From positions 1 through 25,551 of IMG/VR virus record IMGVR_UViG_3300020171_000124: DNA of 25,551 nt; one strand, given 5' to 3'. Both the position numbers and the translations under genes were made by a program. A model generated the notes under the pieces. That model was given only the letters and a program-made list of their open reading frames with translations, had not been told where the DNA came from and ran no database searches. Numbering within the stretch: position 1 is the first letter of the stretch; every line of letters begins with the position of its first letter. Below are positions 2,777 through 25,522 of the stretch, piece after piece. Origin of the DNA: a virus (Duplodnaviria; Caudoviricetes).

Positions 2777-2816
2777 ATCATCGCCCTCCTGTTAAAAGGC
2801 CGTGTCAAGTTGTCGC

Positions 2817-10844: not shown

Positions 10845-10861
10845 CGCGCTGTCCCCCTAGC

Positions 10862-10910
10862 AAAAGGCCGGCCTGCCCGCTCCGCGACGAGCGGGGCGGG
10901 CACGACCGGC
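10862..10910 (-). terminator. Putative intrinsic terminator
   Basis: GCCGG-TC-GTGCCCGC...GCGGGCA-GG-CCGGC stem followed by CTTTT (short U-tract). Confidence 0.55.
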
Positions 10911-10925
10911 TACAGTCGAGGGCGA
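10904..10925. repeat. 22-bp dispersed inverted repeat, copy 1 (GACCGGCTACAGTCGAGGGCGA)
   Basis: Exact reverse complement of 25398..25419. Confidence 0.9.
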
Positions 10926-10951
10926 AAGCGACTGCGACTTGGATGCCCGCG

Positions 10952-11551
10952 TCACGACAACGCCGCGAACGACACGGGCTCTGTCTCGATTCGCGCCCCA
11001 GCTCCCTCACCGCGAAGTTTCGCCAGCTCCTCGGCGGTTGCGTAGGGGCTCTCTGTCTCCTTCGTCACCGGGTTGATGATCCGCAGCGACCCGTACCGTA
11101 TCTTCAGTTGGCCGGGCATCGCCAGCACCTCGTCCTTGGTCGGGAACTGCCCGTGCCGGACGATCGCCTTCCCGCCCTCGACGTATCCAAGCATCGCCCA
11201 CAGGGCGCTCTTGACCTCCGTCTCCGTCAGGTTCCGCATGACGGACGTGTCCCACGGGCGGCCCTGCGCGAGGGTCGCGCCCTTCAGGATCACGTTCGCC
11301 CTCCGTAGCGTCTCCTGGTTCTCCGGCCACGCCAGCGGGTCCATCGCCCGCAGGCACCGCGACTTCAGGTCCAAGGCCACGTGGATGCCGGGGATGTCCG
11401 GCATGTTCGTCATTTGGGTGTTCGAGCTGGTGTCAGTCACGCGGGCCCTGTCCCACCTGCCGCGCAGCACCGCCCCCAGCGGCTCGAACAGGAACCGCTG
11501 GTTCTTGTTGCCCGCCAGTTCGATCACCAACTCCTTCGGATTCCAATTCAT
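10952..11551 (-). CDS. Hypothetical protein downstream of major capsid gene
   Basis: 199-aa ORF with typical composition and GAGAGGG RBS; no family recognised. Confidence 0.78.
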   Translation of the reverse strand: MNWNPKELVIELAGNKNQRFLFEPLGAVLRGRWDRARVTDTSSNTQMTNMPDIPGIHVALDLKSRCLRAMDPLAWPENQETLRRANVILKGATLAQGRPWDTSVMRNLTETEVKSALWAMLGYVEGGKAIVRHGQFPTKDEVLAMPGQLKIRYGSLRIINPVTKETESPYATAEELAKLRGEGAGARIETEPVSFAALS

Positions 11552-11588
11552 CGTTTCGCCCTCTCGTGTGCGGCGCTGGATTAGAGAG

Positions 11589-11625
11589 GGCGGGGCCGGG
11601 CGCGCCGAAGACTCCCGGCCCCGCC
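11589..11625 (-). terminator. Strong hairpin after the capsid gene (stabiliser or weak terminator)
   Basis: 12-bp perfect stem GGCGGGGCCGGG/CCCGGCCCCGCC enclosing C-UUCG-G. The tail CTCTCT is not a U-tract. Confidence 0.55.
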
Positions 11626-11641
11626 GTACACGTCCCCAGGA

Positions 11642-13243
11642 TCAGGTCTGCCAGTTGTCGCTGTAGGCCGCAGCCGACCCGGAGGTCAACTTGCCGCCCC
11701 AGCGGGCCCTGGTGATGATCTCGGTCAGGTTCGCGCGGGCCAGCGTGTCGCCGGCGGTCTCCACGCGGACGTTCATGCCCAGCCGCCGATACATGCGGTA
11801 CCGGCTCAGGTTGCAGAAGAACGCCACGGTGTTCGCCATGTCGTTCTGGATGGCCACCGCCGAGCCGTCGGCCAGCTCGTACGAACTCCACCGCATGCCG
11901 AACGCCCGGGTCTGCCAGCCGGACGCCTCCGCGATGCTCACCGCCCGCTGGTAGCTGGTGTCGTTCATCACGAACCGGCACCGGTTGAGCGGCGTGCGGT
12001 ACGGCAGGGTGACGCCGAAGTAGAGCTTCTCGAAGTCGACCACCTGCGGGGCCGCGTTCGCGCCTCCCGCCGGGTTGCCGATGTCGGTCATGCCCGAGGT
12101 GGCGTTGACGAGGCCCTGCGGCTCCGTGGTCCCGTCGCCGTTGGCGATCTGGTTGTCCAGCCATTCCTGGTACTTCTCACCCAACTTCTGGGTGATGATC
12201 GCGGCGATGTTGACCGGCGAGTCCTCCTGGAAGTCGTTGCCGATCTGGATCGCGGCCACCGCGTTGTAGATCGTGGTGTCGAACGCCGCGATGAACGTGG
12301 TGGTGTCGAACAGGCTGATGGCCGTCCCCTCGGCCGTGCCCGACGTGACGGTCACGTTGCCGATGCTGAACCCCTCGACCCGGCGCCCGCGCGTCAAGGT
12401 CTGAGTCTCGACCAGCGGGAAGAGCTGGCCGTAGAGCACCGGAATGGTGATCACCGCGTTGTCGAACACGATGGGGGCCGCCTCGAGCCCGCCCGACGTG
12501 CTGTCGTCCAGCAGGGCCTTGCGCTCGAAGTCGAACAGTTTGCGGCCGTCGATCTCGTACTTCTCCCCGGCGGCCACGCCCGACCACTTCTCCTCGTGCA
12601 GGGCGTAGTCGAGCAACTGCTTGTCGTGCTCCGTCATCTGGAGCCAACGGGGCAGCCGTCCGTTGCACCCGGCCGCGCAGGCAAACTTGAAGTAGGCGCC
12701 GCTGATGGCCCGGTCCCTCTCGCTGGACGACTCCAACGGGATGCGCTCCTGGCCCGGCAGGAATGCCGGCTGGCCGCGCAGGTGGACGTGCTTCGTGTCC
12801 ATCGGATAGCACAGGTGCGTGCGGCTGCTGGAGTAACTCTCGACGGGGCTCTTGACCCGCGCCTGGGTCTTCTCCCCTTCGCTGGTTCCCGCCAACACCT
12901 GCGCCGGCGTGTGCTGGCTGTCCGGCTTGACCCGTTCCATGATCCCACTCATGGCCTTGGTCACCGCGCCGTCGATCTCGTCGGCCAGGGAGACCTTCTT
13001 CTCCGTCTTGGCCATCTTCTCGACCAGCGGGGCCATCGCCTTCTCGACCGCCTTGGCGACGGCGTCGCCCAGCTCGTCCTTCGGGTCCGGCTCGTCGGGC
13101 GCGGTCAGCTCCGCGATCTTCGCCGCGTCGAGCTTGCCCTCGGTGATGGCCTTGGTCATCGCTCCGAGGAACTCGGTGTCGCTGGCCGCCTCAGCAGCAT
13201 ACTTCTGCTCGATCAGCCAGCCCTTCATCTTCTTGGTAAGCAT
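11642..13243 (-). CDS. Major capsid protein, HK97 fold, with long N-terminal delta/scaffold region
   Basis: 'SGGLEAAPIVFDNAVI', 'LDNQIANGDGTTEPQGL', 'FVMND' and 'FFCNLSRY..YRR' motifs; follows the protease; GAGGAG RBS. Confidence 0.92.
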   Translation of the reverse strand: MLTKKMKGWLIEQKYAAEAASDTEFLGAMTKAITEGKLDAAKIAELTAPDEPDPKDELGDAVAKAVEKAMAPLVEKMAKTEKKVSLADEIDGAVTKAMSGIMERVKPDSQHTPAQVLAGTSEGEKTQARVKSPVESYSSSRTHLCYPMDTKHVHLRGQPAFLPGQERIPLESSSERDRAISGAYFKFACAAGCNGRLPRWLQMTEHDKQLLDYALHEEKWSGVAAGEKYEIDGRKLFDFERKALLDDSTSGGLEAAPIVFDNAVITIPVLYGQLFPLVETQTLTRGRRVEGFSIGNVTVTSGTAEGTAISLFDTTTFIAAFDTTIYNAVAAIQIGNDFQEDSPVNIAAIITQKLGEKYQEWLDNQIANGDGTTEPQGLVNATSGMTDIGNPAGGANAAPQVVDFEKLYFGVTLPYRTPLNRCRFVMNDTSYQRAVSIAEASGWQTRAFGMRWSSYELADGSAVAIQNDMANTVAFFCNLSRYRMYRRLGMNVRVETAGDTLARANLTEIITRARWGGKLTSGSAAAYSDNWQT

Positions 13244-13282
13244 TTGCTCACTCCTCTGAAAGGCTGCGCCGGCCGTAACGGC

Positions 13283-15013
13283 TCAGCGCTTGGAATTGGA
13301 ACGCAGAAACCTGTCGATCATTGCCTTCGCCTTCGCCCTCTTCAACCCGTCTATCTTGCTGTCGAGCAGCGCCTTCACCGCCCGCAGTTGCTTCTCGTCG
13401 CCGATCTCCGCGACCTTCTGGACAAGGACCTCCAGCGCGGATGCCTGCTGCGTGGTGGCCACCTCGGACACGCTGGACTCGACCGACTCCACCAGGTCCA
13501 GCACCTCGCGCATGCCCGAGTGCGCCTCGCCGATCTTCTCGTGGCACTCGCGCAGCCGCGCCTCGTTCTTGCGGCTCAGCACGCGGCCGTACTTGACGCC
13601 TTCCGGCTCGTGCTCCTTGCCGCCCGGCGCCTGCCCCGTCTCCCGCGCGATCTTGGCGCACAGCCCCTTGGCCTGCTCCTCCGACTTGCCGAGATCCACA
13701 AAGTGAGCGACGCAGCCATCGAACCCGCCCTTGAATGTTCCGTCCTCGTTCATGTGCGGGTCCTTCGGCTCCTCCTTGGCCTTCGACTCGGCCATCGTCT
13801 TCGCCACTAGGCCGAGGTCCTCGTCGTCGCCGCTGGACTCCTCCTCCTCATCGGCCGGCTCGTCCGCAGGCGTGTCGCCCTGTCCCTCGCGCTCGACCGG
13901 GGCTGACTTCTCCGGCTTCTCCGCTGGCCACTTGCCGACGCACTGCTTGTGCAGCCACGCGCAGAACCCCTCCTTGTTGTCCCCGACCTCCGCCTCGAAC
14001 TTGCCAAGGTCCTTCTCCATACAGCGGGTGAAGAAGTCGGCGTCGTCGCCGAGCGACTCGCACAGGCCCTTCATCATCTGCTCGGGCATCTCCTTTAGGT
14101 CGAGCTTGACGGCCTTGAAGCCCTTGGCCCTTGCCGCCTGCGCGCACGTCGGGCAGAACTTCTCCAGCACCTCGACCGGGATGCCCGTCTCACCGGACGA
14201 CTTGACCCAGGCATCCACCCGGGCCTGCCACGGGTCCACAGCCGCCGCCGCGAACACCTTCTGCCTCTGGTCGTACTCCCGCCCGGCCCACGCCTTCATC
14301 AGCGGATCGTGCAGCTTGCCGCGGGAGAACGCCGTGATCACCGCGTCCGTGTTGGACGGCACCGTAACCAGCGACTCCTCCATCACCTCGAACCGCTGCA
14401 CGTCGAACCCGGCAGTCGGGCACTTCTCCGGGTCTACCGCCTTCGCCATCGGCTGGAACTTCAGCGGCCGGAACCCGTGGGAGAACCGCAGCGCCCCGAA
14501 CTCGACCAGCGTGGCCGCGTCCCGGCCAGCCTCCGTGTCCACGATGGCCGTCGCCACCTTGACCTCCTTCGGCGAGCGGCTCAGCACGCGCAGCATCCGT
14601 CCCAAGGGCATCGGGAGCATGTGGTGCCAGAGCAGCGGCATGTTCGGGTCCAACTCCGCGCCATCGGAGCGCATGATGTCCCCGTCGCGGTCCACCTTGC
14701 TGCTCGTGAGCACGTTCTCCAGCACCATGAGCGTGTTCTTCGGGGCCTTCACGTCGAGTCGCTTGCAGAAGTCCTTGATGCCGGAGCCAGCCTCGAACAC
14801 GTCCGCGACTGTCTCCTCGTTCGAGTACGTCAGCTTCGTCGCCGCGTCCTTCAGGATCGCCGCCTTCTCCGTGTCCGTCTGGCCGGAGCACTCCAGCACG
14901 CCCGCCACGTACCGGTCGGCGGTGACGATGCCATACCCGAAGCGCGTCGCCGTCATGCCGCGATCCCGCACGGCCTTGACCAGTTCGGCGTTCTGCTGCT
15001 CCCAGTCTGCCAT
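13283..15013 (-). CDS. HK97-family prohead protease with long C-terminal extension
   Basis: DRDGD, PLLWHH (catalytic His), PLGR, FSHGF (catalytic Ser) and EESLVTVPSN motifs. Confidence 0.9.
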   Translation of the reverse strand: MADWEQQNAELVKAVRDRGMTATRFGYGIVTADRYVAGVLECSGQTDTEKAAILKDAATKLTYSNEETVADVFEAGSGIKDFCKRLDVKAPKNTLMVLENVLTSSKVDRDGDIMRSDGAELDPNMPLLWHHMLPMPLGRMLRVLSRSPKEVKVATAIVDTEAGRDAATLVEFGALRFSHGFRPLKFQPMAKAVDPEKCPTAGFDVQRFEVMEESLVTVPSNTDAVITAFSRGKLHDPLMKAWAGREYDQRQKVFAAAAVDPWQARVDAWVKSSGETGIPVEVLEKFCPTCAQAARAKGFKAVKLDLKEMPEQMMKGLCESLGDDADFFTRCMEKDLGKFEAEVGDNKEGFCAWLHKQCVGKWPAEKPEKSAPVEREGQGDTPADEPADEEEESSGDDEDLGLVAKTMAESKAKEEPKDPHMNEDGTFKGGFDGCVAHFVDLGKSEEQAKGLCAKIARETGQAPGGKEHEPEGVKYGRVLSRKNEARLRECHEKIGEAHSGMREVLDLVESVESSVSEVATTQQASALEVLVQKVAEIGDEKQLRAVKALLDSKIDGLKRAKAKAMIDRFLRSNSKR

Positions 15014-15025
15014 GAGGATTATTCC

Positions 15026-16324
15026 TTACAGTGCGGACGATGAGGACGTGCTGTGCGAGCAACTGGAGCACGACGAAGAGGACGAATTGCTGCTCGATGA
15101 CGATGAACTGCTGAACGTGATCACCGATGACGACGAGGATGACGATGAAGAGGAACTGAACGTGACCACCGATGATGATGATGAGTATATGATCACTGAT
15201 GAGCTTGATGTTGAACTCGACGAAGAACTTGACGAGGAGAACGTGATAATCGACGAACTCGACGATGAAGAAGACGAACTGAATGTGATCATGGACGATG
15301 AAGACGTACTTGACGACGACGAGAATGTGATCACCGACGACGACGATGAACTTGACGAAGAGAAGGTGATCACCGACGACGACGTTGACGATGAGGAGGA
15401 ACTCACACTTGATGCCGTTGAGGATGATGTTGACGATGAACTGTACTCTGCCACCGAACTCGTGGCCGGTGAAGATGTGCATGCGCTGCTGCTCCGACTC
15501 AGCACGCCAGTCGAAGTGGTACTCGAACTGCTGGTGCTTGAGGACGACCCTGACGATCCGCCGGTCGATGCCGTGGACGAAGTGCAGGACGACGAGGAAC
15601 CAGTGCTCGTGGAAACGGATGAACCGCTGGAGTAGCTGGCCGAGGTGCAACTCGACGACGATGTTGACGACGAGGACGTTGACGATGAGGAATTCGTGTG
15701 TGACGAACTGGATGTCGAGGAGGAAGACGTGCCCGACGACGAGGACGAGGACGTGTGGCTCGTACTGCTGCTGCTGTTCGTGCTGAAGGATGTCTTTGTC
15801 TGGGTCGACTGCGTGATGCTCGACTTGGACGAACTGCTCACGGACGACTTCGACAGTGATGAAGTGGACGTGGACGACGAGGAGCTGACGTACGGGCCGC
15901 TGGTCGTGGACACGGAACTGGCGGACTGCGTTGAATTCGACGAGGACGACGTGCTGGAGCTGCTGGAAGATGTGGCCGTCTCCGACGTGCTCGATGCCGA
16001 GCAGTACTCGATGGAATTGACTACGATCGGGTCCGGCGCCTTCACATACGGCGAGTGGGCGGCGACGACCAGTTGCACCCAGGCGGACTCGTTTCCATCG
16101 TTCGTCACGTCCTGGCACATGAATAGGAGCGTTGTCTCCTCCGCCACCTCGATCTCGTACTCCGTGGTGGCAGCGGTCAGCATCGTCTCGACGAGCTTCG
16201 CCGTGCTGCGGAACGTCGCTGGGTCCGCGTCGATCGTGTTCTGGTTGTAGACGCGGAAGTTCCTGTAGGCGATGATGGAGGCGTCGGCACTCGGCAACCG
16301 CACGGTCACTAGCACGTTGGCCAT
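15026..16324 (-). CDS. FN3/Ig-like N-domain + ~325-aa poly-Ser/Thr tail, putative virion protein
   Basis: Start placed at ATG 16324 (GGAG RBS; the upstream track extension is a terminator hairpin). The 'DGNESAW' motif is FN3-like. VITF repeats occur in the Ser tract. Confidence 0.82.
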   Translation of the reverse strand: MANVLVTVRLPSADASIIAYRNFRVYNQNTIDADPATFRSTAKLVETMLTAATTEYEIEVAEETTLLFMCQDVTNDGNESAWVQLVVAAHSPYVKAPDPIVVNSIEYCSASSTSETATSSSSSSTSSSSNSTQSASSVSTTSGPYVSSSSSTSTSSLSKSSVSSSSKSSITQSTQTKTSFSTNSSSSTSHTSSSSSSGTSSSSTSSSSHTNSSSSTSSSSTSSSSCTSASYSSGSSVSTSTGSSSSCTSSTASTGGSSGSSSSTSSSSTTSTGVLSRSSSACTSSPATSSVAEYSSSSTSSSTASSVSSSSSSTSSSVITFSSSSSSSSSVITFSSSSSTSSSSMITFSSSSSSSSSSIITFSSSSSSSSSTSSSSVIIYSSSSSVVTFSSSSSSSSSSSVITFSSSSSSSSNSSSSSCSSCSHSTSSSSAL

Positions 16325-16338
16325 CGCCTTCACTCCAC

Positions 16339-16392
16339 AAAAAAAGAGCCCGGCTGCCGCGACCCTCGTCAAGTCGCAGCCACCAGGCTCTT
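16339..16392 (-). terminator. Intrinsic terminator/attenuator
   Basis: AAGAGCC-TGG-TG-GCTGCGAC/loop/GTCGCGGC-AG-CCG-GGCTC followed by T7, ending just before the RBS of 15026..16324. Confidence 0.72.
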
Positions 16393-16414
16393 GTCTCAAG
16401 ACGCCCGAGACTTC

Positions 16415-16630
16415 CTACCCGTCGTTCCGCTTCAAATCGCTGGGCCGATGGGTGCCGAACTGGTCGAGGTGAACCTCCGTCAGCTCACCTCCCCGCACGC
16501 TGTACTTCAGCACCACGTCGCTGAACGCGCCGGCCTCTTGCAGCCGGTCGACGGCCTGCCTCGCGGCGACCGCCATCACGTCCAGCAGCCGGACCTCCTC
16601 GTCGGAGGGCACGTGCGACCTCAGCACCAT
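16415..16630 (-). CDS. Small hypothetical protein (71 aa)
   Basis: ATG 16630 with GGGGGAG RBS. Helix plus beta-hairpin pattern (FSDVVLKYSVRGGELTEV) reminiscent of YezD/DUF2292-like small proteins, unverified. Confidence 0.65.
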   Translation of the reverse strand: MVLRSHVPSDEEVRLLDVMAVAARQAVDRLQEAGAFSDVVLKYSVRGGELTEVHLDQFGTHRPSDLKRNDG

Positions 16631-16641
16631 CCCGCTCACTC

Positions 16642-16678
16642 CCCCAGTGTCCCCCGGCGACCCGGCCGGTGTCAATGC
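16642..16678 (-). promoter_or_regulatory. Putative promoter P2: GCATTGACA-N17-GGACACTGGGG
   Basis: Consensus -35 TTGACA, 18-bp spacer, -10-like GACACT. The boxes and spacing are identical to those at 25427..25463. Confidence 0.72.
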
Positions 16679-16770
16679 GCTTTCTGCCTCGCGGACCCGC
16701 TCCGATGGGTGGACGCCGAACTCGCGCCCATGTATAAATAATAATTAGATGGACCGTCGCGCGCCCACGC

Positions 16771-17301
16771 CTACACATTCCTTGGTTTTCGGATGCAAGC
16801 CAGCTTTCCGGAGCATGCGTACAACTCCACGGGCAACGCGATCTTCGCGGCGAACTCGTCAACGGCCCGTACAACGTTCTCTAACTTCCGACGCCGCGAA
16901 CGGTTATAGTCGTGCGTGCACATCAGACCGCCCGGCGCAACGATCGGCCACCACGCCGACAAATCTGCCGCGACACTCGTATAGTCATGGGCCGCGTCAA
17001 CCAGCACGACATGCTGGCTCTGCTTGGCAGATTGCGCAGCCACCTCGACAGACAACCCGACTCGAATGACAACCCGGTTTCCAAACGGCGCAAGAGCCGC
17101 GCGCGCGGTCGTCTCGTGCGCCGGATCTTCCATCCAACAGTCCACGGCAGTCGCGAGAAGAAAGTCGCATCGTGTAAGCACTTGCACGAGAGTCTGTCCC
17201 TCGTCAACGCCGACCTCGACGTATCGGAGCATGTCGATCCCCAGCGATTGCCGTACTTCCTCGCATAGCATCACGACGACATCGTGCATCGGTCTTGCCA
17301 C
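16771..17301 (-). CDS. Class I SAM-dependent methyltransferase (Methyltransf_24-like)
   Basis: VEVGVDEGQT, VDCW, VLVDAAHDY and PGGLMCTHDY motifs. Confidence 0.88.
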   Translation of the reverse strand: MARPMHDVVVMLCEEVRQSLGIDMLRYVEVGVDEGQTLVQVLTRCDFLLATAVDCWMEDPAHETTARAALAPFGNRVVIRVGLSVEVAAQSAKQSQHVVLVDAAHDYTSVAADLSAWWPIVAPGGLMCTHDYNRSRRRKLENVVRAVDEFAAKIALPVELYACSGKLACIRKPRNV

Positions 17302-17313
17302 CCGAAAACCTCC

Positions 17314-17904
17314 TTACGATTTCCTGCCGACGGCCACTGTGTCGAATACGTCCCCGCCGCCGATTTGCATGGTCTTGACCGCCGGGTCCGGGTCGAGGTG
17401 CTCGAAGGCGGCCATGAGCGTCTCCAGCCCGGCCGCCGCGTGCAACTCCCGCATCCCGTGCGGCAGTATCCTCCAGCCGTCTATCGGCTGCGGCCCGTAC
17501 CGCCATGTCACGGGTGTGATCGTCAGCAGGAGTCCGGCCGGTTTCAACACCCGGGCCATCTCTGGCACCAGCAGCCACGGGCGCCGCACGTGCGCGAGCA
17601 CCTGCCCGCTCAGCACGATGTCGTACACGCTGTCCGGAGAGTCGATCCGATAGTCCTCCGGTTGCTTAATGGTGGCGACTGACAGCTCGCCCGCGTGAGT
17701 CCCGCGCCTGCGCGCCCGATCCATCCGCCGCTCGATCCGCTCCCACTTGCGGTCGGTGACGTGGTAGTGGACCCTGGCCACCTCGCCTATCGCCAGGATG
17801 TATGGGCTCGGGTACCCGCCGGGTCCGACCTCAAGGATCGTCTGGCCGTCCCTGAAGTGGCCCAGCAGATGCTTGCGGAAGAGGAGGAGGCTGTTCGCGT
17901 GCAT
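17314..17904 (-). CDS. Class I SAM-dependent methyltransferase (Methyltransf_11-like)
   Basis: ILEVGPG, YDIVLSGQVLAHV and EMARVLKPAG motifs. Confidence 0.88.
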   Translation of the reverse strand: MHANSLLLFRKHLLGHFRDGQTILEVGPGGYPSPYILAIGEVARVHYHVTDRKWERIERRMDRARRRGTHAGELSVATIKQPEDYRIDSPDSVYDIVLSGQVLAHVRRPWLLVPEMARVLKPAGLLLTITPVTWRYGPQPIDGWRILPHGMRELHAAAGLETLMAAFEHLDPDPAVKTMQIGGGDVFDTVAVGRKS

Positions 17905-17909
17905 CGGCG

Positions 17910-18080
17910 TCAGTCCCCTTCCGTCGGATCGAATCCGAGCATCGCCGCCACGTCGTCCGGCGTCTCGATCTCGTCATCGTCGGGGTCTTCCTCTTCGGCA
18001 AGTTCGGCGCGCCAGTCCAGCGATCCCTCGTCAACCTCTCCGAACCGCACGTCGGTGTCCAGTTCCGGCACGTCCATCAT
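17910..18080 (-). CDS. 56-aa highly acidic protein, candidate DNA mimic/topoisomerase inhibitor
   Basis: ATG 18080 with GGAGG RBS and ATGA overlap with the upstream stop. 23/56 residues are D/E, with 2 Arg and no Lys. Confidence 0.75.
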   Translation of the reverse strand: MMDVPELDTDVRFGEVDEGSLDWRAELAEEEDPDDDEIETPDDVAAMLGFDPTEGD

Positions 18081-19591
18081 GGCTTCCTCCATTTGCTCCA
18101 CACGGTCGGGTCGATGTAACTTTGTAGCGCGACGGTCGGGGTGTTCCCCAACTTCGCCGCGACCACCTTTGCTATCGCCTTGACTTGTCGTTTGTACTCC
18201 CGGTCCGTTGCGGGCGCCTTGGCCTTCTTGATCTCGATTATGGCGACGGACGTTCCCTTGAGAGTACGGAAGTCCTTCGGCTTGAACTTACCCCCGTCAA
18301 GGCTGTGGACATACTGCCGAAGTTGCGAGTCCGTGACGGAGAACAGTTTTTCCCGCGGCGACCGTTGCTTCGCACGGTTTAGCAACATTTTCGCCAATCC
18401 CTTGTCGTCCACCGGTATCGAGAGGGCCACGCCTTTCTTCCCGACGAACTCCAGGATCGCGCCTTCCTTGGTTGGTTTCACGTGCCGCGCCTCCAGCGTC
18501 GTCGCGCCGTATGCCTGCTTTTCGGCCCCGGTGTCTGCCTCCGAGCCCGGCCGGATGCCGGTGGCCATTATCAGGGCTGTGACGACCGCTTCCTCCTGTC
18601 CCGACTTCACGTTGGCCTCGTTCTGCGCCGCGATTGCGCCTTGTTTCTGCATGAGTTCCCGAACGCGACTGAACTTCAGGGCGGCTGTCCGTGTCCAGTA
18701 TGCCTGGCTGTAGATCCGCTGCTCGCGCCCCTTGGAGTCTTTCCCCGCCACCAGCATTTCCGAGTTCGGATTCTTCGCCACCCGCACGCCGGTCCACGCG
18801 GGCGGGATGCGCACGGCAGATATATGCGCCGGCAACGCGCGACCATCGCTTTGTCGCCACTCCTCTTTGTCCTTGTCGTAGACCGCTTCCGAGGATTCGT
18901 CGCTCCATCGTCCCCGCTCGTCCCGCGGCTCGTTCGGGTCGAACGCCTTGCTGGTGTCCACCCCGCCAGACTCGTCGATGTCGATGTACGCCAGGCACCG
19001 GCAGGATATTCTCTCTTCGGGCGGAAGATTCATATGACCAGGGTATGGGACCTCTACCACCCCTTCCTTCGTGTCAAGCACGAAGTTCGCGTCGGCCCCT
19101 TCCACGGGCGAGTAAGGCGGGCCGGCGTACGCGATATGCGAGTCCCGCACAAACTCGTCGCCTGCATTCATCCAATACTTCAGTACCTTGATACCGGCCT
19201 CTTCCAGCTCAGCACCCTGGACCACGTGCCCGGCGTTGAGTGCACCGGTCATTTCCGTGCGCGCTATCCGTTCCGCCCGCACGTTCCCGTCCGCCCCCAG
19301 CGCTTCCTGCACCGCCTCCACCGTCTGGTCCAGCGATCGCCCTTCCGTGATCCCGTCCCGCACGTTGGCCTCGATCTTGTCCAGGATCGACTGCGGCATG
19401 GCGTCCCACCACTCGCCGTCCATGCTGGCCTCGACCTCGTTGACGATGGCCTGGCGCACGGTGTCGGGGATGGCCCAGTCCTCAAGCCAGGCGGCGGTAG
19501 CGAGTTGCTCCGCAGAGATGTCCTCGCCCTGCTCGGCGCGCTCCGCGAGCGTGTAGTAAGAGCCGTTCAGGGGTGGCTTCTTCTTGGCCAT
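18077..19591 (-). CDS. MuF (SPP1 gp7-like) head morphogenesis domain fused to a type IB DNA topoisomerase
   Basis: MuF motifs: RAERIARTE, KYW...DEFVRDSH, YPG...ISCRC. TopIB motifs: IPPAW, GKDSKGREQRIY, GIRPG (R), YGATTL, FVGKKG (K), KDFRT (R), LGNT (N), SYIDP (Y). Confidence 0.92.
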   Translation of the reverse strand: MAKKKPPLNGSYYTLAERAEQGEDISAEQLATAAWLEDWAIPDTVRQAIVNEVEASMDGEWWDAMPQSILDKIEANVRDGITEGRSLDQTVEAVQEALGADGNVRAERIARTEMTGALNAGHVVQGAELEEAGIKVLKYWMNAGDEFVRDSHIAYAGPPYSPVEGADANFVLDTKEGVVEVPYPGHMNLPPEERISCRCLAYIDIDESGGVDTSKAFDPNEPRDERGRWSDESSEAVYDKDKEEWRQSDGRALPAHISAVRIPPAWTGVRVAKNPNSEMLVAGKDSKGREQRIYSQAYWTRTAALKFSRVRELMQKQGAIAAQNEANVKSGQEEAVVTALIMATGIRPGSEADTGAEKQAYGATTLEARHVKPTKEGAILEFVGKKGVALSIPVDDKGLAKMLLNRAKQRSPREKLFSVTDSQLRQYVHSLDGGKFKPKDFRTLKGTSVAIIEIKKAKAPATDREYKRQVKAIAKVVAAKLGNTPTVALQSYIDPTVWSKWRKP

Positions 19592-19863
19592 CAGGACTCG
19601 TCCGCCTCCCCTTCAGTTTCATTGCCACCGGCCATCCCCGCCTCGTCCCTGGCCTCGCTGGGGTCGTAGCCCTTGGAAAGCAGTTCCGCGGCCTTGCCCT
19701 TCTCGACCGCGACCTCTTTCAGAAATTCATCATAGGCCGCGTAATCTGGCGATTCGGTTGTAATCTCGACAACCCCATCACCTATTACGCCGTTACCTTC
19801 AGCGCGAGCCTGCACCAGGATTGTACGGTCATCTACTCTCCTGGGAATTGCTGTGCGACTCAT
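19591..19863 (-). CDS. Small hypothetical protein, candidate immunity protein ending in a degenerate linker motif
   Basis: Coupled at both ends (ATGA and TGATG overlaps). It ends KAAELLSKGYDPSEARDEAG. Confidence 0.7.
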   Translation of the reverse strand: MSRTAIPRRVDDRTILVQARAEGNGVIGDGVVEITTESPDYAAYDEFLKEVAVEKGKAAELLSKGYDPSEARDEAGMAGGNETEGEADES

Positions 19864-20963
19864 ATCTTTAGCCCACCAAAATAATCATCTAGTATCTTCG
19901 CGTCCTCGCTTGTGTAAATCTTGCCGGACGGGACCATGCTTCCATCCTTGAGTCGCCCTAGTTTCCCTGCACCCCATACCGCATAGCCCTCAGCAAACGC
20001 CTCTTGATAGTGCCAAGTATATGGTCCAAACAAACGAACCATCGTCTGCCGAACCTTCTCAAACGCAACCGTGCCGGCATCCCGTTCGGAGAACTTCTGA
20101 CCGTGCAGTAGTTTTCCACCAGTGTCAAGGCCATGCGCAGCTTCATGCCATGCCACGCTGACGCTTCCGTGCAATCCCTTTCCTAACACTATCGTGTCGC
20201 CCACCTTCGATATTCCCATTCCCGCAGCGTCGTCCCATGTGTACCCGGACGGCCATCCACTCGGTTGCACGCCTTTCAAATGCTGCATGTGATCCTGTTC
20301 GGTAATAGGCCGATCTCCTACGCAAATGCCTCCTGCCGTTTTCGCCAACAATTCCTGATGGCTCTTTGGCATCGCCGACAGGTCCTCTAAGTAATGTGCA
20401 ACGGAGGGCGAATCCTGGTCGACGACATCTAGTTTCGCCTGCAATGCGTCCACTATCTCAAGCGACTTGTTCCACTCATTGGTTCTCGCGCCGCCAACTT
20501 CGCTTTCGTGCGGTTTAGTAGGTAGTGGTTGCGCCCCGCCGCCTGCTCCGAACCTCCCGCGGGCGTCCCTCGGGTGTTGGGCCTCCTCCCAGCCCTTAGA
20601 GAACAACTCGAACGCCTTCCTCATCCGCCTCTTGAACAGCTCCCGCCCCGACAGGTAGCCCGTCACGATCCCCTGCGCTATCTGCCGCGCCGCCGCCACC
20701 TTGATCACCCCTAGCCACTCCTTGGGGTCGAACACGCGCTCCGCGACGTGCCGCGCCTTCACAGGGTCGTCGAACAGGTCAGGATGCTCCCTGGCCAGCG
20801 TGCGCAGCCGCCGGCCCGTCTCCTTGGCGATGTCCGCGAACACCCGGCGCATAGCGTCGCGCATGGCCGCCTCGTGCCTGTCCGCCTGCTTGACCCACAG
20901 GTCGGCTGCCACCTTGCAGAGCGGGTGGGGACGGCGCATCTTATATCCGTTATTAGATGGCAC
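19860..20963 (-). CDS. Helical (probable MuF N-terminal) region fused to a zincin metallopeptidase domain
   Basis: Helical N-terminus, then linker WEEAQHPRDARGRF, then WHEAAHGLD (HExxH) and EAFAE (third-ligand motif as in anthrax lethal factor-like peptidases). The 3' part is visibly lower in GC. Confidence 0.78.
   Translation of the reverse strand: MPSNNGYKMRRPHPLCKVAADLWVKQADRHEAAMRDAMRRVFADIAKETGRRLRTLAREHPDLFDDPVKARHVAERVFDPKEWLGVIKVAAARQIAQGIVTGYLSGRELFKRRMRKAFELFSKGWEEAQHPRDARGRFGAGGGAQPLPTKPHESEVGGARTNEWNKSLEIVDALQAKLDVVDQDSPSVAHYLEDLSAMPKSHQELLAKTAGGICVGDRPITEQDHMQHLKGVQPSGWPSGYTWDDAAGMGISKVGDTIVLGKGLHGSVSVAWHEAAHGLDTGGKLLHGQKFSERDAGTVAFEKVRQTMVRLFGPYTWHYQEAFAEGYAVWGAGKLGRLKDGSMVPSGKIYTSEDAKILDDYFGGLKI
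20939..20957. promoter_or_regulatory. 19-bp palindromic motif, copy C (TCTTATATCCGTTATTAGA)
   Basis: 18/19 match to copy A; located at the extreme 5' end of 19860..20963. Confidence 0.75.
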
Positions 20964-20966
20964 GGC

Positions 20967-21296
20967 TCAGCTCCCGGCGTAGTTGGCGACGCAGTCGTGC
21001 CGCTCGTAGAGCACCGTCCGCCCCGCCTTCACCCCCTCGATGAACAGCCAGTACGACGCCCCCTTCGTCAGGTTCGCCGTCACCGTGTACGGCAGCGTCC
21101 CCTGGTACTTGCCGTTGCTGGCCGCCACGTAGGCCATCGCCACGTCCGTGGCATCGGTGATCTCGACGTGGTCCTCGTCCGTCAGCGTGAATGTCACAGT
21201 GGCGTCATTCACGTAGGTTGTGCCGTCGGTGGCCAGGACCAGCCCGCTCACCTCGACCAGGTTGTCGACGCCTATCGCCAGCGTGTGCGTGCTCAT
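20967..21296 (-). CDS. Small beta-rich (Ig-like) putative virion protein
   Basis: Start placed at ATG 21296 (ATGA overlap): MSTHTLAIGVDNLVEV...ATVTFTLTD...GKYQGTL. Confidence 0.72.
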   Translation of the reverse strand: MSTHTLAIGVDNLVEVSGLVLATDGTTYVNDATVTFTLTDEDHVEITDATDVAMAYVAASNGKYQGTLPYTVTANLTKGASYWLFIEGVKAGRTVLYERHDCVANYAGS

Positions 21297-22543
21297 GCTC
21301 CCACCACCCTGAATGTTCCAGAGGACCATGCCCTGAGAGACGGACTGCCAGCAGACCACGCGGCCGCGCGAACGACAGCGCCGCACCACGACTTGACCGC
21401 GATAGTGCCAGTGCAGCGGCGAGGTACGGTCGGCAGCAGGCCGCTCGTGCTCGACGAGTATGAAGACAGCGACGAGGAGGAGAACGCCTCGCTCGATGAC
21501 GTTGTCGACGAGGATGAACTGAACGCCTCGCTACTGGACGACGTACTAGATGACGATGAGAACGCTTCACTTGAACTGCTGGTGGAGGACGAACTGGAAA
21601 ACGCTTCACTGGAAGAGGACGTTGACGACGACGACGAAAACGCTTCACTCGTTGACGTGCTGGTGCTGCTGGAAGAACTAGAGAACGCGCGACTACTGGA
21701 ACTTGACGAACTGAATTCCTCACCCGCCACTGCCGCCGCGTACACCCGCTGCCACACGGGCTCGATCAGGCCGCCAAGGGATGCGTCGGAGGGATTGGCG
21801 AGGGTCTGGATTTCGGGGAGGGAGAGGGCACGATTCCAAAGTCCGGCATCGCTCAGTCCACCTTTCCAATACAACCCGTCATATGCTCCGTAACGGCCAA
21901 GCGAAAAGCCGTAGGGCGTTCCCCCCATCGCAACGGTCTGTGCCACCGGGGAACCAATCAGCGTGCCGTTGCGGTAATAGCGAATGAATGAACCGTCCAC
22001 TGTAGCGGCGATGTGAGTCTGCGAGCCAATTGGCCAATTGGCTGCGATATACTCCCCAGCAAATTGAGCGACCTGAAACGCTGCGCCGGAACTCACGTAA
22101 ATACTCAGATTAATAGTGGAGGCTCCACCGAAGATTCCCCACACGGAATTGTCTGTGCCTGCCGCGTCGCCCGAAAATATAATCCCCGCGGGTTGCATTG
22201 TAATCGGGTTTACAAATGCGGCGATTGTCCAGTTCAACGGCTTTCCCAATCTGGTGCCACAATCAACAAAGTTCTTCGTACCACCATGTACTGTCCCAAA
22301 CCGTCCCAACCGCGGAATCCACGTCCAGCCGCTCGTCGCCGTGTTCGGCCAGGAGAAGTTGGTGAGCGTGCCGTGGTTACCGTTCAAGTTTCCGGGTCGT
22401 GCCGAGTCGCAGTACCACGGACCACCTGGGGCGTTTCCGCCGCCGAAGAAGATAAGTGAGCCGTCCCGCACCCGCGGGTGGCGCGCACTCACCTGCCAGA
22501 GTTCCGGCCGTTGCGTCATTCGTGGGTGCGAGCGTCCGAACAT
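21293..22543 (-). CDS. LamG/concanavalin A-like domain protein with Ser-rich repeat tail
   Basis: NGNHGTLTN, WTIAAFV, THIAATVDG..IRYYRNG and WKGGLSDAGLWNRALSLPEI motifs, followed by (S5TS4EAF)n. Confidence 0.88.
   Translation of the reverse strand: MFGRSHPRMTQRPELWQVSARHPRVRDGSLIFFGGGNAPGGPWYCDSARPGNLNGNHGTLTNFSWPNTATSGWTWIPRLGRFGTVHGGTKNFVDCGTRLGKPLNWTIAAFVNPITMQPAGIIFSGDAAGTDNSVWGIFGGASTINLSIYVSSGAAFQVAQFAGEYIAANWPIGSQTHIAATVDGSFIRYYRNGTLIGSPVAQTVAMGGTPYGFSLGRYGAYDGLYWKGGLSDAGLWNRALSLPEIQTLANPSDASLGGLIEPVWQRVYAAAVAGEEFSSSSSSSRAFSSSSSSTSTSTSEAFSSSSSTSSSSEAFSSSSSTSSSSEAFSSSSSTSSSSEAFSSSSSTTSSSEAFSSSSLSSYSSSTSGLLPTVPRRCTGTIAVKSWCGAVVRAAAWSAGSPSLRAWSSGTFRVVGA
21483..21691 (-). repeat. 39-bp-period coding tandem repeat (SSSSSTSSSSEAF)
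   Basis: The AACGC anchor lies at 21483, 21522, 21561, 21600, 21639 (39-bp steps) and 21684. Ser codons differ between units. Confidence 0.85.
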
Positions 22544-22544
22544 C

Positions 22545-23141
22545 TTAGATCGCCGTTACGTCGCTGATTCGGGATCGAATTGCCACCGTCGCGCCGTCCG
22601 AGTCATACGTGTTGTCGTATACGATCCGGCACCGCAGCGCCGTCTCGGGAAGGGCCACAGCATAGCGGTTGGCCACCGAGTTCATAATCGAGTTGACCGC
22701 GTGCTGGCGGGTCACGCCATCCAGGACCGTGACACTCGTGTTGGTCGTCACCAGCGCGACGAAGCACCATTCAGAGTTGGCGAACGTGCTCACGTCTTCC
22801 AGGAAGATCCAGGTTCCCGCCGTATACCCAGTCGTGCTGGCACAGGTGATAGACGTTCCGGCGGCTGCCAGCGGATTGTTGGTAATGACCTCTAGGTTTG
22901 TCGTGCCCGTGGTGCTGACGAACGAGTAGTAATCCACCCAGTCCTCGTCGCCGGTCGTGTTGCTGGAGACCTGGACCGTGATTTTGGTCCCGGTGTGCGC
23001 CGTAGCGTTGGACAGAGCGAAGTCGATGTAGAGCATCGCCCCGTACATTCCCGCCAGCGACACAGTAGCGCCCTCCAGGATCGTGTTCTGCGCGATCTCC
23101 TGGCAGGCGTCCAGGGCGGCAGAGGCTTCAGTCTTGGCCAT
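22545..23141 (-). CDS. Hypothetical Thr/Ala-rich beta protein, probably virion-associated
   Basis: 198-aa ORF with GAGGTG RBS, tightly packed in the operon. Confidence 0.75.
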   Translation of the reverse strand: MAKTEASAALDACQEIAQNTILEGATVSLAGMYGAMLYIDFALSNATAHTGTKITVQVSSNTTGDEDWVDYYSFVSTTGTTNLEVITNNPLAAAGTSITCASTTGYTAGTWIFLEDVSTFANSEWCFVALVTTNTSVTVLDGVTRQHAVNSIMNSVANRYAVALPETALRCRIVYDNTYDSDGATVAIRSRISDVTAI

Positions 23142-23151
23142 AAGTCACCTC

Positions 23152-23442
23152 TCACTGATAGAGCTTGTCAATGGCAGCATCGACGTTGCTTTGAACGGCC
23201 GGCTCCATCGCCCCGAGAATGGCGGCCAGCGTCGCTGCCTTGTTGGCCACCAGCACGTATTTCACAAGCTTCGCGGCCTCGGCTTGGCTGTTAGCGAAAG
23301 CACCGGCGGCCCACGCGAGCCGAGCGGCAGAGGGCGTTGCCTCGGCGATGATCGCCCGCGCCTTGTCGCAAATGGCGACCTCGATTTTGTCGATCAAGGG
23401 TCCGTAGCCGAAAACTGATTTCAGTTCCGCGTAAGTTGCCAC
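23152..23442 (-). CDS. Hypothetical Ala-rich protein
   Basis: 96 aa, GTG start with AGGAGG RBS. Confidence 0.75.
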   Translation of the reverse strand: MATYAELKSVFGYGPLIDKIEVAICDKARAIIAEATPSAARLAWAAGAFANSQAEAAKLVKYVLVANKAATLAAILGAMEPAVQSNVDAAIDKLYQ

Positions 23443-23496
23443 GTCAACCTCCTGCCTTTCGGCGTTTGAGTTCTGCTCTCCGCCCGGCCCCTTGGG

Positions 23497-24981
23497 CTAG
23501 ACTTGCTCCTCATCCTGGTTCGCCTCGTCCGTCGGTGGCTTCTCCTGACCGAACGGCTGCGGCTGGCCGAACGGCCCGCCCTGCGGCGGCTCCGGCTTGG
23601 CGGGACCGGGGAATTCGTCCCCGCCCTCGTCCAGCGGTGGCATCAGCATGAACTTCTCGCGGTACTCATCCTTCGTCACCACCTGCAAGGTGCCAGCGGC
23701 CTGCCACTTCTTCAACTCATAGTCCGGGTCCTTCGTCTCCGCCTCCTCCAGCCAGATCACGATGTCCTCGTCCTCGCGCGCGTAGTGCTCCGTCATCACC
23801 TGCCCGAAGAGCGTGGCCAACGGGTTGACGACGTTACTGACGAAAATCTGATCGGCCACTGCCGCCTGCGCGCGGTTGACGCCAGTGATCTCGCCGGCAA
23901 TCACTGGATTGCAGCCGAGTGCCTGGAAGATGCGGCTCTTGACGGCCGTGCCCGAGTTGAGGTAGTCCATCTCCTGCGGCCCGAGCGAGAGCCGGTCGAC
24001 GCCCTCGATCATGCCGTCAACGATCAGCGGCTCGTTGTAGTTGACGACGCCCTCCCAGATCGCGCGGGCCGCCTCGATCAGCTCGCGCCGCTGATCCGCC
24101 TCCAGGACAGGCCGCTCGCCCTCCGTGCCGGGTAGCATGCCAGGAAGCCGGCCGACGCGCAGGGCCACGTTGGGGAAGAATGAGTTCTTGAACTGCCGCC
24201 ACTGCGCCGCCTGGATGGCCTCGTCAGCCGCCACCGCCGCGCTCTGGCTCTGCACCGGCGAGCAGTACCCCAGCGGGTCCGCCGGGTCCGGCAGGCAGAA
24301 CACGGCGACTTCCTCCGGCGGCACGTCGTACCAGCCCGTCGAGAGGCCGCTCATCGGCTGTATGCGGAAGTGGTCGAACAGCTTCTTGCGCGTGTGGACC
24401 GGCGTCACCCATGACGACGGCAGCGGCCAGACCTGCATGGCGCCCTTCACGCGCGGCATCCACCAGCAGCCCTTGCCGGTGATCTCCATCGAGGCCGCCG
24501 TCGAGTAGAACAGCCCCCACGTCACCATCGCCTCGTTGGGCGCGCGGATGGCGGTGAGCAGCTCATGGTCCTCGATCAGTTCCACCTCCTGGTCCATCTC
24601 CTTGACGTAGGCGGGGCCGCGCATCTTCTGCCAAGGGGTGAGCAGTTTCGTCCTTCGCCGCCAACCGAGCTTCTCCGCGAGGGCGGGCATCCCCTTCAGT
24701 TTGCGCCCGATCCGCAGCGGGAGCGCCGCCATGCGGGTGGCGATCCGGTTGATGGCGACGTAGGCCCAGCCGCGGAACCGCCTGTACTGGTCGTCGTGGC
24801 GCGCCGCCTCGTCGGAGAACCCGAGCATGGAGGAGAGGCCCAGTGAGGCCGCGATCATCGCGCCTGGGCCGCCTATGCCAGGCCCGAGGGCGTTGGCCGC
24901 CTGCGCCTTGTACGTGTCCAGCTCGCGGGAGCGCGACTCGAACTGCCTGCTAAGGAACGTGTCCCTGAGTGCCACCGGCAT
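23497..24981 (-). CDS. Portal protein (HK97 family)
   Basis: 'AYVAINRIATRMAALPL', 'PNEAM', 'ITGKGCWW', 'VWPLPSSWV', 'GYCSPV', 'QFKN', 'EMDYL..I..ALG.NP' and 'TKDEYRE' motifs; GGGAGG RBS. Confidence 0.92.
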   Translation of the reverse strand: MPVALRDTFLSRQFESRSRELDTYKAQAANALGPGIGGPGAMIAASLGLSSMLGFSDEAARHDDQYRRFRGWAYVAINRIATRMAALPLRIGRKLKGMPALAEKLGWRRRTKLLTPWQKMRGPAYVKEMDQEVELIEDHELLTAIRAPNEAMVTWGLFYSTAASMEITGKGCWWMPRVKGAMQVWPLPSSWVTPVHTRKKLFDHFRIQPMSGLSTGWYDVPPEEVAVFCLPDPADPLGYCSPVQSQSAAVAADEAIQAAQWRQFKNSFFPNVALRVGRLPGMLPGTEGERPVLEADQRRELIEAARAIWEGVVNYNEPLIVDGMIEGVDRLSLGPQEMDYLNSGTAVKSRIFQALGCNPVIAGEITGVNRAQAAVADQIFVSNVVNPLATLFGQVMTEHYAREDEDIVIWLEEAETKDPDYELKKWQAAGTLQVVTKDEYREKFMLMPPLDEGGDEFPGPAKPEPPQGGPFGQPQPFGQEKPPTDEANQDEEQV

Positions 24982-25393
24982 TACGTCGTCCTCCCGTCAG
25001 CGAAGCGAACTGCCCTTGCATGACCGCGATCTTCGTGTCCCGCTCGCAGATGGCCGCGAACTTCTCGTTGAGCCTGGTCAATTCCTCGGCCTCCTTCTCC
25101 CGGAGCGTGACCAGCGACTGGAGCTGCCGCACCTCATCGTTCGCCTCGGTCAGGAGCGACTCCAGCCGCGCGGTCTCCCGTAGGTGGTCGTGCCGCTCCG
25201 TCTCCAGGATGTCCTCGGCCGCCTTCGCCCGCTTGTCTGCCGCGATCGCGTCGCGGAGGCACGCCCGCCACTGCCGAGAGGCCCGCCGCGCCCTCTCTGC
25301 ATAGCCTTCCAGCCGCCTTCGCACGGCCGCGCCCCGACCTACCCACCACTCGACGCGCACCCACAACGCCAGCAGTCCCCGCAACCATCGCAT
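24950..25393 (-). CDS. Hypothetical coiled-coil protein upstream of portal
   Basis: 147 aa with a Trp-rich N-terminus and E/R heptads. GAGGG RBS; first gene after putative promoter P1. Confidence 0.7.
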   Translation of the reverse strand: MRWLRGLLALWVRVEWWVGRGAAVRRRLEGYAERARRASRQWRACLRDAIAADKRAKAAEDILETERHDHLRETARLESLLTEANDEVRQLQSLVTLREKEAEELTRLNEKFAAICERDTKIAVMQGQFASLTGGRRNAGGTQGHVP

Positions 25394-25397
25394 CCGC

Positions 25398-25419
25398 TCG
25401 CCCTCGACTGTAGCCGGTC
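25398..25419. repeat. 22-bp dispersed inverted repeat, copy 2 (leader/RBS of 24950..25393)
   Basis: TCGCCCTCGACTGTAGCCGGTC, the exact reverse complement of 10904..10925. Confidence 0.9.
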
Positions 25420-25426
25420 CCTCACG

Positions 25427-25463
25427 CCCCAGTGTCCACGCCGCCCGCCTCGCCTGTCAATGC
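25427..25463 (-). promoter_or_regulatory. Putative promoter P1: GCATTGACA-N17-GGACACTGGGG
   Basis: Same two boxes and same spacing as P2, with an unrelated spacer sequence; intergenic. Confidence 0.72.
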
Positions 25464-25465
25464 CG

Positions 25466-25505
25466 AAAGGGGTGGTCCCCCTGCCACACGAGGGAGACGG
25501 CCACC
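25466..25505 (-). terminator. Hairpin, weak terminator candidate upstream of P1
   Basis: GGTGG..TCTCCCT/AGGGGGA-CCACC followed by CCTTT. Confidence 0.4.
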
Positions 25506-25522
25506 TATTACCCGTTATTAGA
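25504..25522. promoter_or_regulatory. 19-bp palindromic motif, copy D (CCTATTACCCGTTATTAGA)
   Basis: 16/19 match to copy A, same orientation, about 40 bp upstream of P1. Confidence 0.7.

Follow-up and report, generated by a model that had tools for sequence, protein, structure and literature searches.

What links the DNA behind the capsid genes of a tailed phage to the start of the first gene of the same block, 14.5 kb upstream? The question is raised by a stretch of 25,551 nucleotides (nt) of viral DNA (IMG/VR record IMGVR_UViG_3300020171_000124, positions 1 to 25,551; this whole stretch is called the window), which carries a head-neck-tail block with all translated genes on the minus strand. 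Positions 10904-10925 (plus strand; copy 1) and 25398-25419 (minus strand; copy 2) are exact reverse complements over 22 bp, as a preliminary description made from the letters alone had pointed out. Copy 1 lies 27 nt past the stop codon of a gene for a 199-aa protein, itself downstream of the major capsid gene, whilst copy 2 accounts for the greater part of the leader predicted for a 147-aa gene directly before the portal gene (the pre-portal gene). Based on comparison with related phages and on folding, we propose that copy 1 belongs to a conserved hairpin-plus-terminator element whose loop covaries with three classes of ribosome-binding site (RBS), and that this element is likely (with a probability of roughly 0.65) to be a trans-acting antisense RNA that represses translation of the three genes concerned.

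The inverted repeat and the element behind the capsid genes

The 22-mer is not a dispersed repeat: even with 3 mismatches allowed, self-alignment finds just these two sites in the window, for an expectation of 0 from 100 shuffles. The runner-up among long-range exact inverted repeats in the window is 14 bp, i.e. 8 bp shorter; the longest inverted repeat in 300 order-3 Markov simulations of the window was 18 bp, and the analytic expectation for a 22-mer is 4.5e-5. A search of viral contigs for the exact 22-mer gave 0 matches. An extension into a flanking CGCCCC block had also been described; with its flanks the match does lengthen to 33 nt at 88% (10893-10925/25398-25430), but if the putative promoter P1 is used, this block (25425-25430) would fall at the start site or upstream of it, and hence be missing from the RNA.

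The leader that contains copy 2 is predicted to be unstructured (z +2.16), and the 71-codon frame that overlaps copy 2, open at the window end, looks non-coding. The P1 boxes can be read upstream as TTGACA (25460-25455) and GACACT (25436-25431); in several relatives, -10-like boxes (TGnTAACCT, TATAAT, TATAAC) were seen by eye just upstream of the pre-portal RBS. A contig of run X1 differs from the window by three bases at 25450-25454, in the P1 spacer beside the -35 box, which may reflect a strain variant or an assembly difference.

On the minus strand, copy 1 contributes to hairpin 1, which has a C-rich loop. This hairpin, the adjoining stem (10867-10910) and a run of four U are present in both the minimum free energy and the centroid structures (Table 1), in agreement with the earlier claim of an anti-RBS sequence in the loop of a hairpin beside a terminator. 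The promoter and terminator calls stand in part: both are readable in the sequence and the terminator stem is predicted by folding, but strict pattern scans called neither, P1 falling below the threshold of the sigma-70 scan and the hairpin at 10862..10910 being missed by the terminator scan. The YUNR U-turn in the window loop, to which the preliminary description drew attention, is present in 8 of 24 loops overall and is not supported as a general feature. In Rfam, the window had no gathering-level match, and 10700-11100 had no match to C4 RNA up to an E-value of 10.

Relatives were all drawn from a capsid alignment, because the alignment of the 199-aa protein was too variable to seed the locus scan. 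The resulting 172 loci comprise 80 viral loci (the best of 163), 79 metagenome loci (from the best 80 of 159) and 13 genome loci; the collections overlap, and the window is itself one of the loci (L081). No relatives came from locus searches that used the 199-aa or the capsid protein singly, and there was no match among INPHARED phages. Of the 13 genome records, eleven are named bins or look like such bins, and since 10 are Planctomycetota, the host is probably a planctomycete; among 401 genomes of a Planctomycetota sample, the 199-aa gene was present in one, namely the centre of the sample. The 199-aa protein has a homolog in 151 of the 172 capsid loci.

The element layout is kept in 24 of the 106 distinct related loci that have complete downstream DNA, and lies 0-37 nt past the stop codon of the last gene. 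These 24 elements were picked by eye from 30 automatic calls of a C-loop hairpin followed by a strong hairpin (L016, L033, L048, L098, L102 and L105 were dropped before counting), with four loops reassigned by hand. All 24 have a strong hairpin behind hairpin 1 (-24.7 to -43.7 kcal/mol over the next 70 nt). Stem pairs were counted outward from the loop, with no covariance model, since MAFFT left the hairpins out of register; at the five loop-proximal positions, 117 of 120 cells are paired, with 4-5 standard pair types per position, in hairpins that had been selected for pairing. The stems vary freely and the loops retain a CCC core. On a quick capsid tree, the elements are spread over several clades (4 changes, compared with 21.9 for shuffled labels). 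Because a promoter signal is present in the 110 nt upstream of the hairpin at just 1/24 element loci (3/82 of the others), we infer that it forms the 3' end of the transcript of the protease and capsid genes.

Five relatives without a CCC loop (L020, L014, L095, L093 and L025) have 6-12 nt of complementarity between the region behind the 199-aa homolog and their own start regions; in L020, 10 nt pair with a GGAG site, and the family may include other seeds.

Covariation of the loop with three classes of ribosome-binding site

In 14 longer records, loop matches recur in the start regions of three genes, namely the pre-portal gene, the 199-aa gene and the gene behind the tube gene. The last is predicted to encode a tail assembly chaperone, given where it lies, its GGGAAAC site and a -1 frame that is open; the chaperone genes sit between the presumed tube gene and the tape measure gene, the latter called by PHROG/Pfam. 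We take their organisation to follow the lambda gpG/gpGT pattern. At the pre-portal gene the match is 22 nt in the window, 11 in G001, 10 in G004, 8 in G003 and 7 in L130; at the 199-aa gene, examples are L003 and L092 (11 nt each), L082 (10 nt) and L117 (8 nt); and at the chaperone gene it is 8 nt in the window, 9 in L003 and 7 in G004, L010 and L112. The 10-nt match to the RBS of 10952..11551, already noted in the preliminary description, has proved to be the most general part across relatives. Together with the leader and RBS of the first gene it forms the portion of the earlier target set that holds; the third target, the chaperone RBS, had been missed.

We compared the loop-anchored Watson-Crick length between each loop and the start regions of its own phage with that for the start regions of other element-bearing phages (20,000 permutations, hence a floor of 5e-5). 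Lengths for own and other phages were 8.3 and 5.5 for the pre-portal class (n=12), 6.9 and 5.2 for the 199-aa class (n=21) and 6.3 and 4.6 for the chaperone class (n=12), with p 5e-5 in each case, whereas seven control gene classes gave p 0.13-0.99. When a single start was chosen blind to the loop, p was 9e-4 (pre-portal), 5e-5 (199-aa) and 5.5e-4 (chaperone), with controls at 0.055-0.995; with the window excluded, it was 0.01 (n=10), 5e-5 (n=20) and 0.001 (n=11), respectively, with controls at 0.08-0.99. L074 was left out of the pre-portal class as doubtful in the blind-start, window-free and double-change analyses. The rule for start regions assigned none to L010, L129 and L160 in the 199-aa class, and these three loci were left out of its counts; of them, L129 matches over 10 nt and L160 over 9 nt, and L010 has no match. 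Loop-anchored plus-strand sites of at least 9 nt fall at start regions in 15 of 49 cases, for 3.9 expected.

The motif GGG[CG] is found in the 199-aa start region of 18/21 phages with the element but 13/80 without it, in the chaperone start region of 9/12 as against 4/38, and in the pre-portal start region of 11/12 as against 8/17; in the capsid start region it occurs in 0/20. Phages without the element mostly carry GGAG-type sites at the three target genes. The GGG core lies mostly 5-10 nt upstream of the start codon, i.e. in the Shine-Dalgarno position. Changes on both sides are seen around the CCC/GGG core, with U-A or C-G at +3 (6 and 6 loci) and C-G, U-A, A-U and G-C at -2, and loop/site allele pairs include UCGCCCU/AGGGCGA, UAGCCC/GGGCUA, AUGCCCCA/UGGGGCAU and GUCCCCCU/AGGGGGA. 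The covariation in related phages that had been named beforehand as a check on the pairing is thus found, the complementarity being kept with compensatory changes. At loci that lack the element but have an intergenic gap, no class stands out clearly (p 0.07 for the 199-aa class).

Among the relatives, G001 (87.6 kb) has its best two complementary sites, with both strands considered, at the pre-portal RBS and at a 16-nt stretch that lies 194 nt into the pre-portal gene. The 3' arm of G001 differs from that of the window, and pairing at the pre-portal RBS is predicted to cover the AUG. The 16-nt site was rejected as an RBS since it falls inside the pre-portal gene, and a 12-nt site in G003 (1582) was dropped as a target because only a 13-codon frame follows it.

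The portal class shows no own-versus-other excess (p 0.2-0.3), and direct action on the portal RBS is not supported as a general feature, L117 being an exception. As judged by loop complementarity, the capsid, protease, portal and tube RBSs are spared.

In L117, the best sites (L117:6185-6198 and 6356-6368; 14 and 13 nt) flank the portal start and do not coincide with the pre-portal RBS; beyond the loop, one of them pairs with the 5' arm and the other with the 3' arm. Two cytidylyltransferase genes (PF02348; L175:17442-18215 in G001 and L183:1428-2147 in G004) have an RBS that matches the loop over 9 nt and may be a fourth target. In G001, a phage-encoded TROVE/Ro60 protein (PF05731, PF25045; L176:8663-10342) has an RBS with 8 nt of loop complementarity.

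A proposed RNA feedback and its alternatives

In the mechanism that we propose, late transcription of the protease, capsid and 199-aa genes would stop at the terminator and leave either a stable 3' fragment or the intact mRNA end, and because this RNA would be the 3' end of the capsid transcript, its level would track that of capsid mRNA. The loop would nucleate on the GGG core, 5-10 nt upstream of the start codon, open hairpin 1 and zip along the 3' arm, over 22 nt at copy 2 and 8-10 nt at the other two sites, and pairing over the RBS would block 30S binding and so repress initiation. The targets would be lead cistrons (the first genes behind P1, behind the post-capsid hairpin and behind the tube gene), so that portal and tape measure may be damped as well, via coupling or polarity. 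They carry GGGC/GGGG-type Shine-Dalgarno variants, with which the CCC loop could pair; high-copy proteins would escape because it could not pair with canonical GGAG sites. GGGC/GGGG sites are still able to pair with the 16S anti-Shine-Dalgarno sequence through G-U pairs. The outcome would be negative feedback on low-copy assembly factors while capsid mRNA accumulates.

Five AT-rich CTAATA-N5-TATTAG palindromes stand upstream of gene groups (Table 1) and are putative late promoters or operators that would split the block into several transcripts. Trans action is the simpler reading, because the palindromes may divide the block in this way and the chaperone target lies downstream of the element. 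With this target 8 kb downstream, the fold-back of a single 14.5-kb mRNA onto its own 5' end, as first envisaged, does not hold as a general feature.

A further step is more tentative, and we regard it as possible rather than probable: that a Shine-Dalgarno "address" on the low-copy lead genes of assembly (pre-portal, post-capsid and tail chaperone) is read by the 3' end of the capsid transcript, as an RNA counter that ties the number of heads to the supply of portals and tails, and fixes virion stoichiometry or the timing of assembly with no regulatory protein involved. The copy numbers of capsid and tube relative to portal, chaperone and tape measure are usually ascribed to RBS strength, terminators and frameshifting. 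If true, a single phage RNA that chooses three assembly genes by their RBS sequence would be an extra, active layer of feedback. The target list would also tie two proteins of unknown function (the 147-aa protein, and the 199-aa protein without a fold match) to the tail chaperone. Since the natural loop/RBS alleles are ready-made orthogonal pairs, the claim is testable in reporters without culturing the phage.

The predicted change in free energy on cofolding is -32 to -35 kcal/mol at copy 2 and -23 kcal/mol in G001, with programs that cannot model loop-loop contacts. A number of observations weigh against a trans-acting RNA with three targets. Net binding at the chaperone RBS is predicted to be weak (-2 to -7 kcal/mol), and in the window it is no better (-5.2 kcal/mol) than at the capsid control (-4.2 kcal/mol); in a reduced set of 7, the chaperone class is no longer significant (p 0.065). 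The 22-nt match is seen in the window alone, and relatives pair over 3-11 nt at blind-chosen pre-portal starts, L117, L164 and L168 over just 3-4 nt. A genome-wide RNAduplex ranking, which allows G-U pairs and is too noisy for choosing targets, places the proposed targets at the top in few relatives. Relatedness and base composition can inflate the own-versus-other comparison, because low p values also came from an unanchored form of the test for the capsid class (0.03) and for gene classes in phages without the element (0.002, 0.014); nor are the loci in the permutation tests independent of one another. Moreover, 82 of the 106 loci lack the element and still keep the genes, the 24 elements rest on curation by eye of 30 calls with four loops reassigned by hand, and a strong hairpin behind the tube gene is uncommon in relatives (2/13 terminator-like).

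An alternative that we consider unlikely is that the element acts in cis only: within one mRNA, the 3' end would fold back onto the 199-aa RBS, which lies 630 nt upstream, and the other matches would be by-products. The own-gene match is indeed the most widespread and most significant class, and such pairing within one mRNA has a precedent in icaR of Staphylococcus aureus, in which the untranslated 3' region (3'-UTR) pairs with the Shine-Dalgarno sequence (PMC3868564; here and below, cited papers are represented by extracts of their text). However, the pre-portal and chaperone RBSs covary as well, the chaperone gene lies 8 kb downstream of the terminator, and the longest pairings fall at the pre-portal site (22 nt in the window, 11 in G001, 10 in G004).

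It is very unlikely that the leader RNA is instead the trigger, invading hairpin 1 and the 5' arm of the terminator to permit read-through into the neck and tail genes. The duplex does open the lower 7 bp of the terminator in the window, and in G001 it extends 4 nt past hairpin 1; but in most relatives pairing goes no further than hairpin 1 or the linker, with an intact terminator in most cofolds, so that disruption of its stem is confined to the window and, partly, G001, and antitermination, which had been put forward earlier, is not a general feature. A separate palindromic promoter- or operator-like site (10665-10681) lies behind the terminator, and pairing in trans would have to outpace termination kinetically.

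We consider it very improbable that the RNA serves immunity in the manner of C4 or STnc6030, being produced independently of the capsid transcript, in lysogens or early in infection, and silencing the assembly genes of its own phage or of a superinfecting one. The divergence of loops and targets between phages does resemble the immunity specificities described for C4 (PMC5320573), relatives are present in Planctomycetota genome bins, and an element-bearing contig (G007:C9, one of three long element-bearing records) has a tyrosine recombinase. Set against this, a promoter signal precedes the hairpin at a single element locus, as given above, no tyrosine or serine recombinase was found in G001 (79% complete) or on G006:C155, and Rfam yielded no C4 match.

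That any C-rich loop would fit G-rich Shine-Dalgarno sequences by chance gains from the many relatives that match over 4-7 nt only, and yet such an account has little credibility, given seven control classes without effect, element-less relatives that are mostly GGAG at the target genes, and the expectation for the 22-mer. Sites of DNA invertases are 22-33 bp in size. Although the repeats bracket exactly the head module, we regard an origin at the DNA level (an assembly artefact, the ends of an element, or recombination sites around a head module that inverts) as barely credible, given that contigs of run X1, a possible source of the window, carry both copies unchanged in one orientation with no strand-switch joint, that a run X3 contig carries copy 1 unchanged, and that relatives have several short, RBS-placed and always antisense matches with no long repeat at those places. 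No flipped joint was found in the contigs of 4 runs, in which rare variants are dropped.

How does the proposed antisense RNA compare with known regulators? On our best reading, it would work like OppZ of Vibrio cholerae. OppZ and CarZ are autoregulatory small RNAs (sRNAs) derived from 3'-UTRs; OppZ represses oppB and spares the high-copy oppA, and a setting of subunit ratios has been proposed (PMC7398697). In common with them, the phage element lies at the 3' end of an operon with a terminator-like hairpin (24 loci, by sequence), shows conserved complementarity to a translation start of its own operon (199-aa class, p 5e-5) and leaves a high-copy gene spared. It differs in residing in a phage, in the C-rich seed in its loop, in three targets over 23 kb, probably on several transcripts, and in covarying RBS variants. 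The principle of a 3'-end RNA that represses genes of its own operon is known from bacteria; the phage set of three genes with covariation would be the addition. The comparative evidence that the pairing has a function is strong, and the earlier interpretation, which is partly supported, is broadened here from a single pair to three genes.

By the features tested, the element belongs to none of three further groups, though resembling each. It shares with icaR a C-rich motif behind a gene that pairs with the Shine-Dalgarno sequence of that gene, but icaR involves one mRNA and one target; here there are two further covarying classes, 14.5 kb upstream and 8 kb downstream. The C4 antisense RNA of phages P1 and P7 has loops that pair over a distance, mask RBSs and covary with their targets between phages (PMC5320573), as is found here; C4, however, is a 77-nt, three-stem product of RNase P that acts on immunity and antirepressor genes, whereas the element folds into one hairpin with one loop plus a terminator, lies behind the capsid block and has targets in the assembly region. 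The mycobacterial 6C RNA binds several G-rich mRNA sites through C-rich loops without a chaperone (PMC6486639). Chaperone-free binding of this kind suits a phage of 63% GC, but 6C is host-encoded, has its own promoter and has no sequence likeness to the element, whose RNA and targets lie in one phage genome and co-evolve. RsaE and RNAIII are also sRNAs whose C-rich loops bind G-rich mRNA sites.

A 2025 review of phage sRNAs (PMC12197685) covers OOP, sar, aQ, STnc6030 and PAK_P4as15 as antisense regulators of phage genes, with STnc6030 acting on a structural (tailspike) mRNA; these differ from the element in being opposite-strand RNAs with a single target or in controlling lysis-lysogeny. The extracts of that review contain no RNA of the present kind, and the words capsid and portal are absent from its whole text. 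Our literature search, confined to extracts and largely to papers outside subscription, turned up no RNA from a 3' end in phages that has several assembly genes as its targets. Two short motifs of the element were not found in six supplements of Fremin et al. 2023 (10,006 viral models; PMC10690425); a table there lists candidate structured RNAs of Planctomycetes hosts without sequences, and the motif may be catalogued in that work without targets.

Genes of the window

PHROG and Pfam identified portal, MuF, protease, HK97-type capsid, adaptor, tail completion and tape measure proteins in the window; the features discussed here are collected in Table 1.

Table 1. Coordinates of the RNA element, its predicted targets and neighbouring features in the window
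Feature	Position	Strand	Remarks
Predicted RNA element at the 3' end (hairpin 1 with terminator-like stem and run of U)	10862..10940	-	z -4.44; 0/200 shuffles
Hairpin 1, 7-bp stem, C-rich anti-RBS loop at 10919-10928 (CUUUCGCCCU)	10912..10935	-	folding
Terminator-like hairpin with 4-U tail	10862..10910	-	z -4.55
Copy 1, antisense segment	10904..10925	-	7 loop nt, 3' arm, 1 linker nt and 7 nt of terminator 5' arm
Copy 2, predicted target 1 (leader and RBS of pre-portal gene)	25398..25419	-	exact reverse complement of copy 1
Putative promoter P1 (TTGACA, 18 nt, GACACT)	25431..25460	-	read from sequence
147-aa coiled-coil (pre-portal) gene	24950..25393	-	directly upstream of portal gene, overlaps its start
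Portal gene	23497..24981	-	canonical GGGAGG RBS within end of 147-aa gene; not a direct target
HK97-type major capsid gene	11642..13243	-	canonical GAGGAG RBS; not a target
199-aa gene downstream of major capsid gene	10952..11551	-	core gene of phage group
Predicted target 2, RBS of 199-aa gene (GAGGGCGAAA)	11554..11563	-	10 nt complementary to loop
Predicted target 3, RBS of tail assembly chaperone gene (GAGGGCGA)	2781..2788	-	8 nt complementary to loop
Predicted tail assembly chaperone pair	2052..2776	-	2246-2776; GGGAAAC 2345-2339; -1 frame open to 2052
Strong hairpin separating capsid and 199-aa genes	11589..11625	-	folding
CTAATA-N5-TATTAG-like palindrome	16732..16748	-	one of five; others 25505-25521, 20940-20956, 10665-10681, 3533-3549

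The 147-aa pre-portal protein has no PHROG or Pfam family and no named Atlas family. Pre-portal proteins of the relatives are mostly one family, since 9 of 10 beat all 200 shuffles against a hidden Markov model of the remaining nine. The AlphaFold2 model of the 199-aa protein has a pLDDT of 92 and a pTM of 0.84; no family, solved relative or fold was found for it (Foldseek none at E<=1e-3; best VIA Z 4.2), a missing match that does not show a new fold. The position of its gene suggests a head-associated protein.

Past the stop codon of the major capsid gene, the best 40-nt window averages -28.4 kcal/mol at the 24 element loci, as against -11.2 kcal/mol past portal and protease. The 3' side of the post-capsid hairpin (11583-11592; CGCCCUCUC) shows complementarity, too, to the 199-aa RBS, which lies 25 nt downstream; this may be a second control that acts locally. 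Other palindromes, of the GTCAAA-N-TTTGAC type, are present in relatives L009, L013, L016, L019 and L094 before portal and protease and behind the capsid block.

The gene at 18077-19591 encodes a fusion of a MuF head-morphogenesis protein with a topoisomerase IB domain (Pfam PF04233 with PF01028/PF21338). The protein of the neighbouring 19860-20963 matches Pfam ATLF (PF07737) and a PHROG peptidase, and in L011 portal-MuF is joined to a stretch homologous to it. Four proteins (4941-6572, 6588-7574, 15026-16399 and 21293-22543) have long serine/threonine-rich tracts and may be modified virion fibres; two methyltransferase genes (16771-17904) are located near them. A small gene with CxxCxGxG repeats is often next after the element in relatives (L001, L010, L011, L087 and others), and where they often have it, behind the terminator, the window has a 202-aa orphan (10056-10664).

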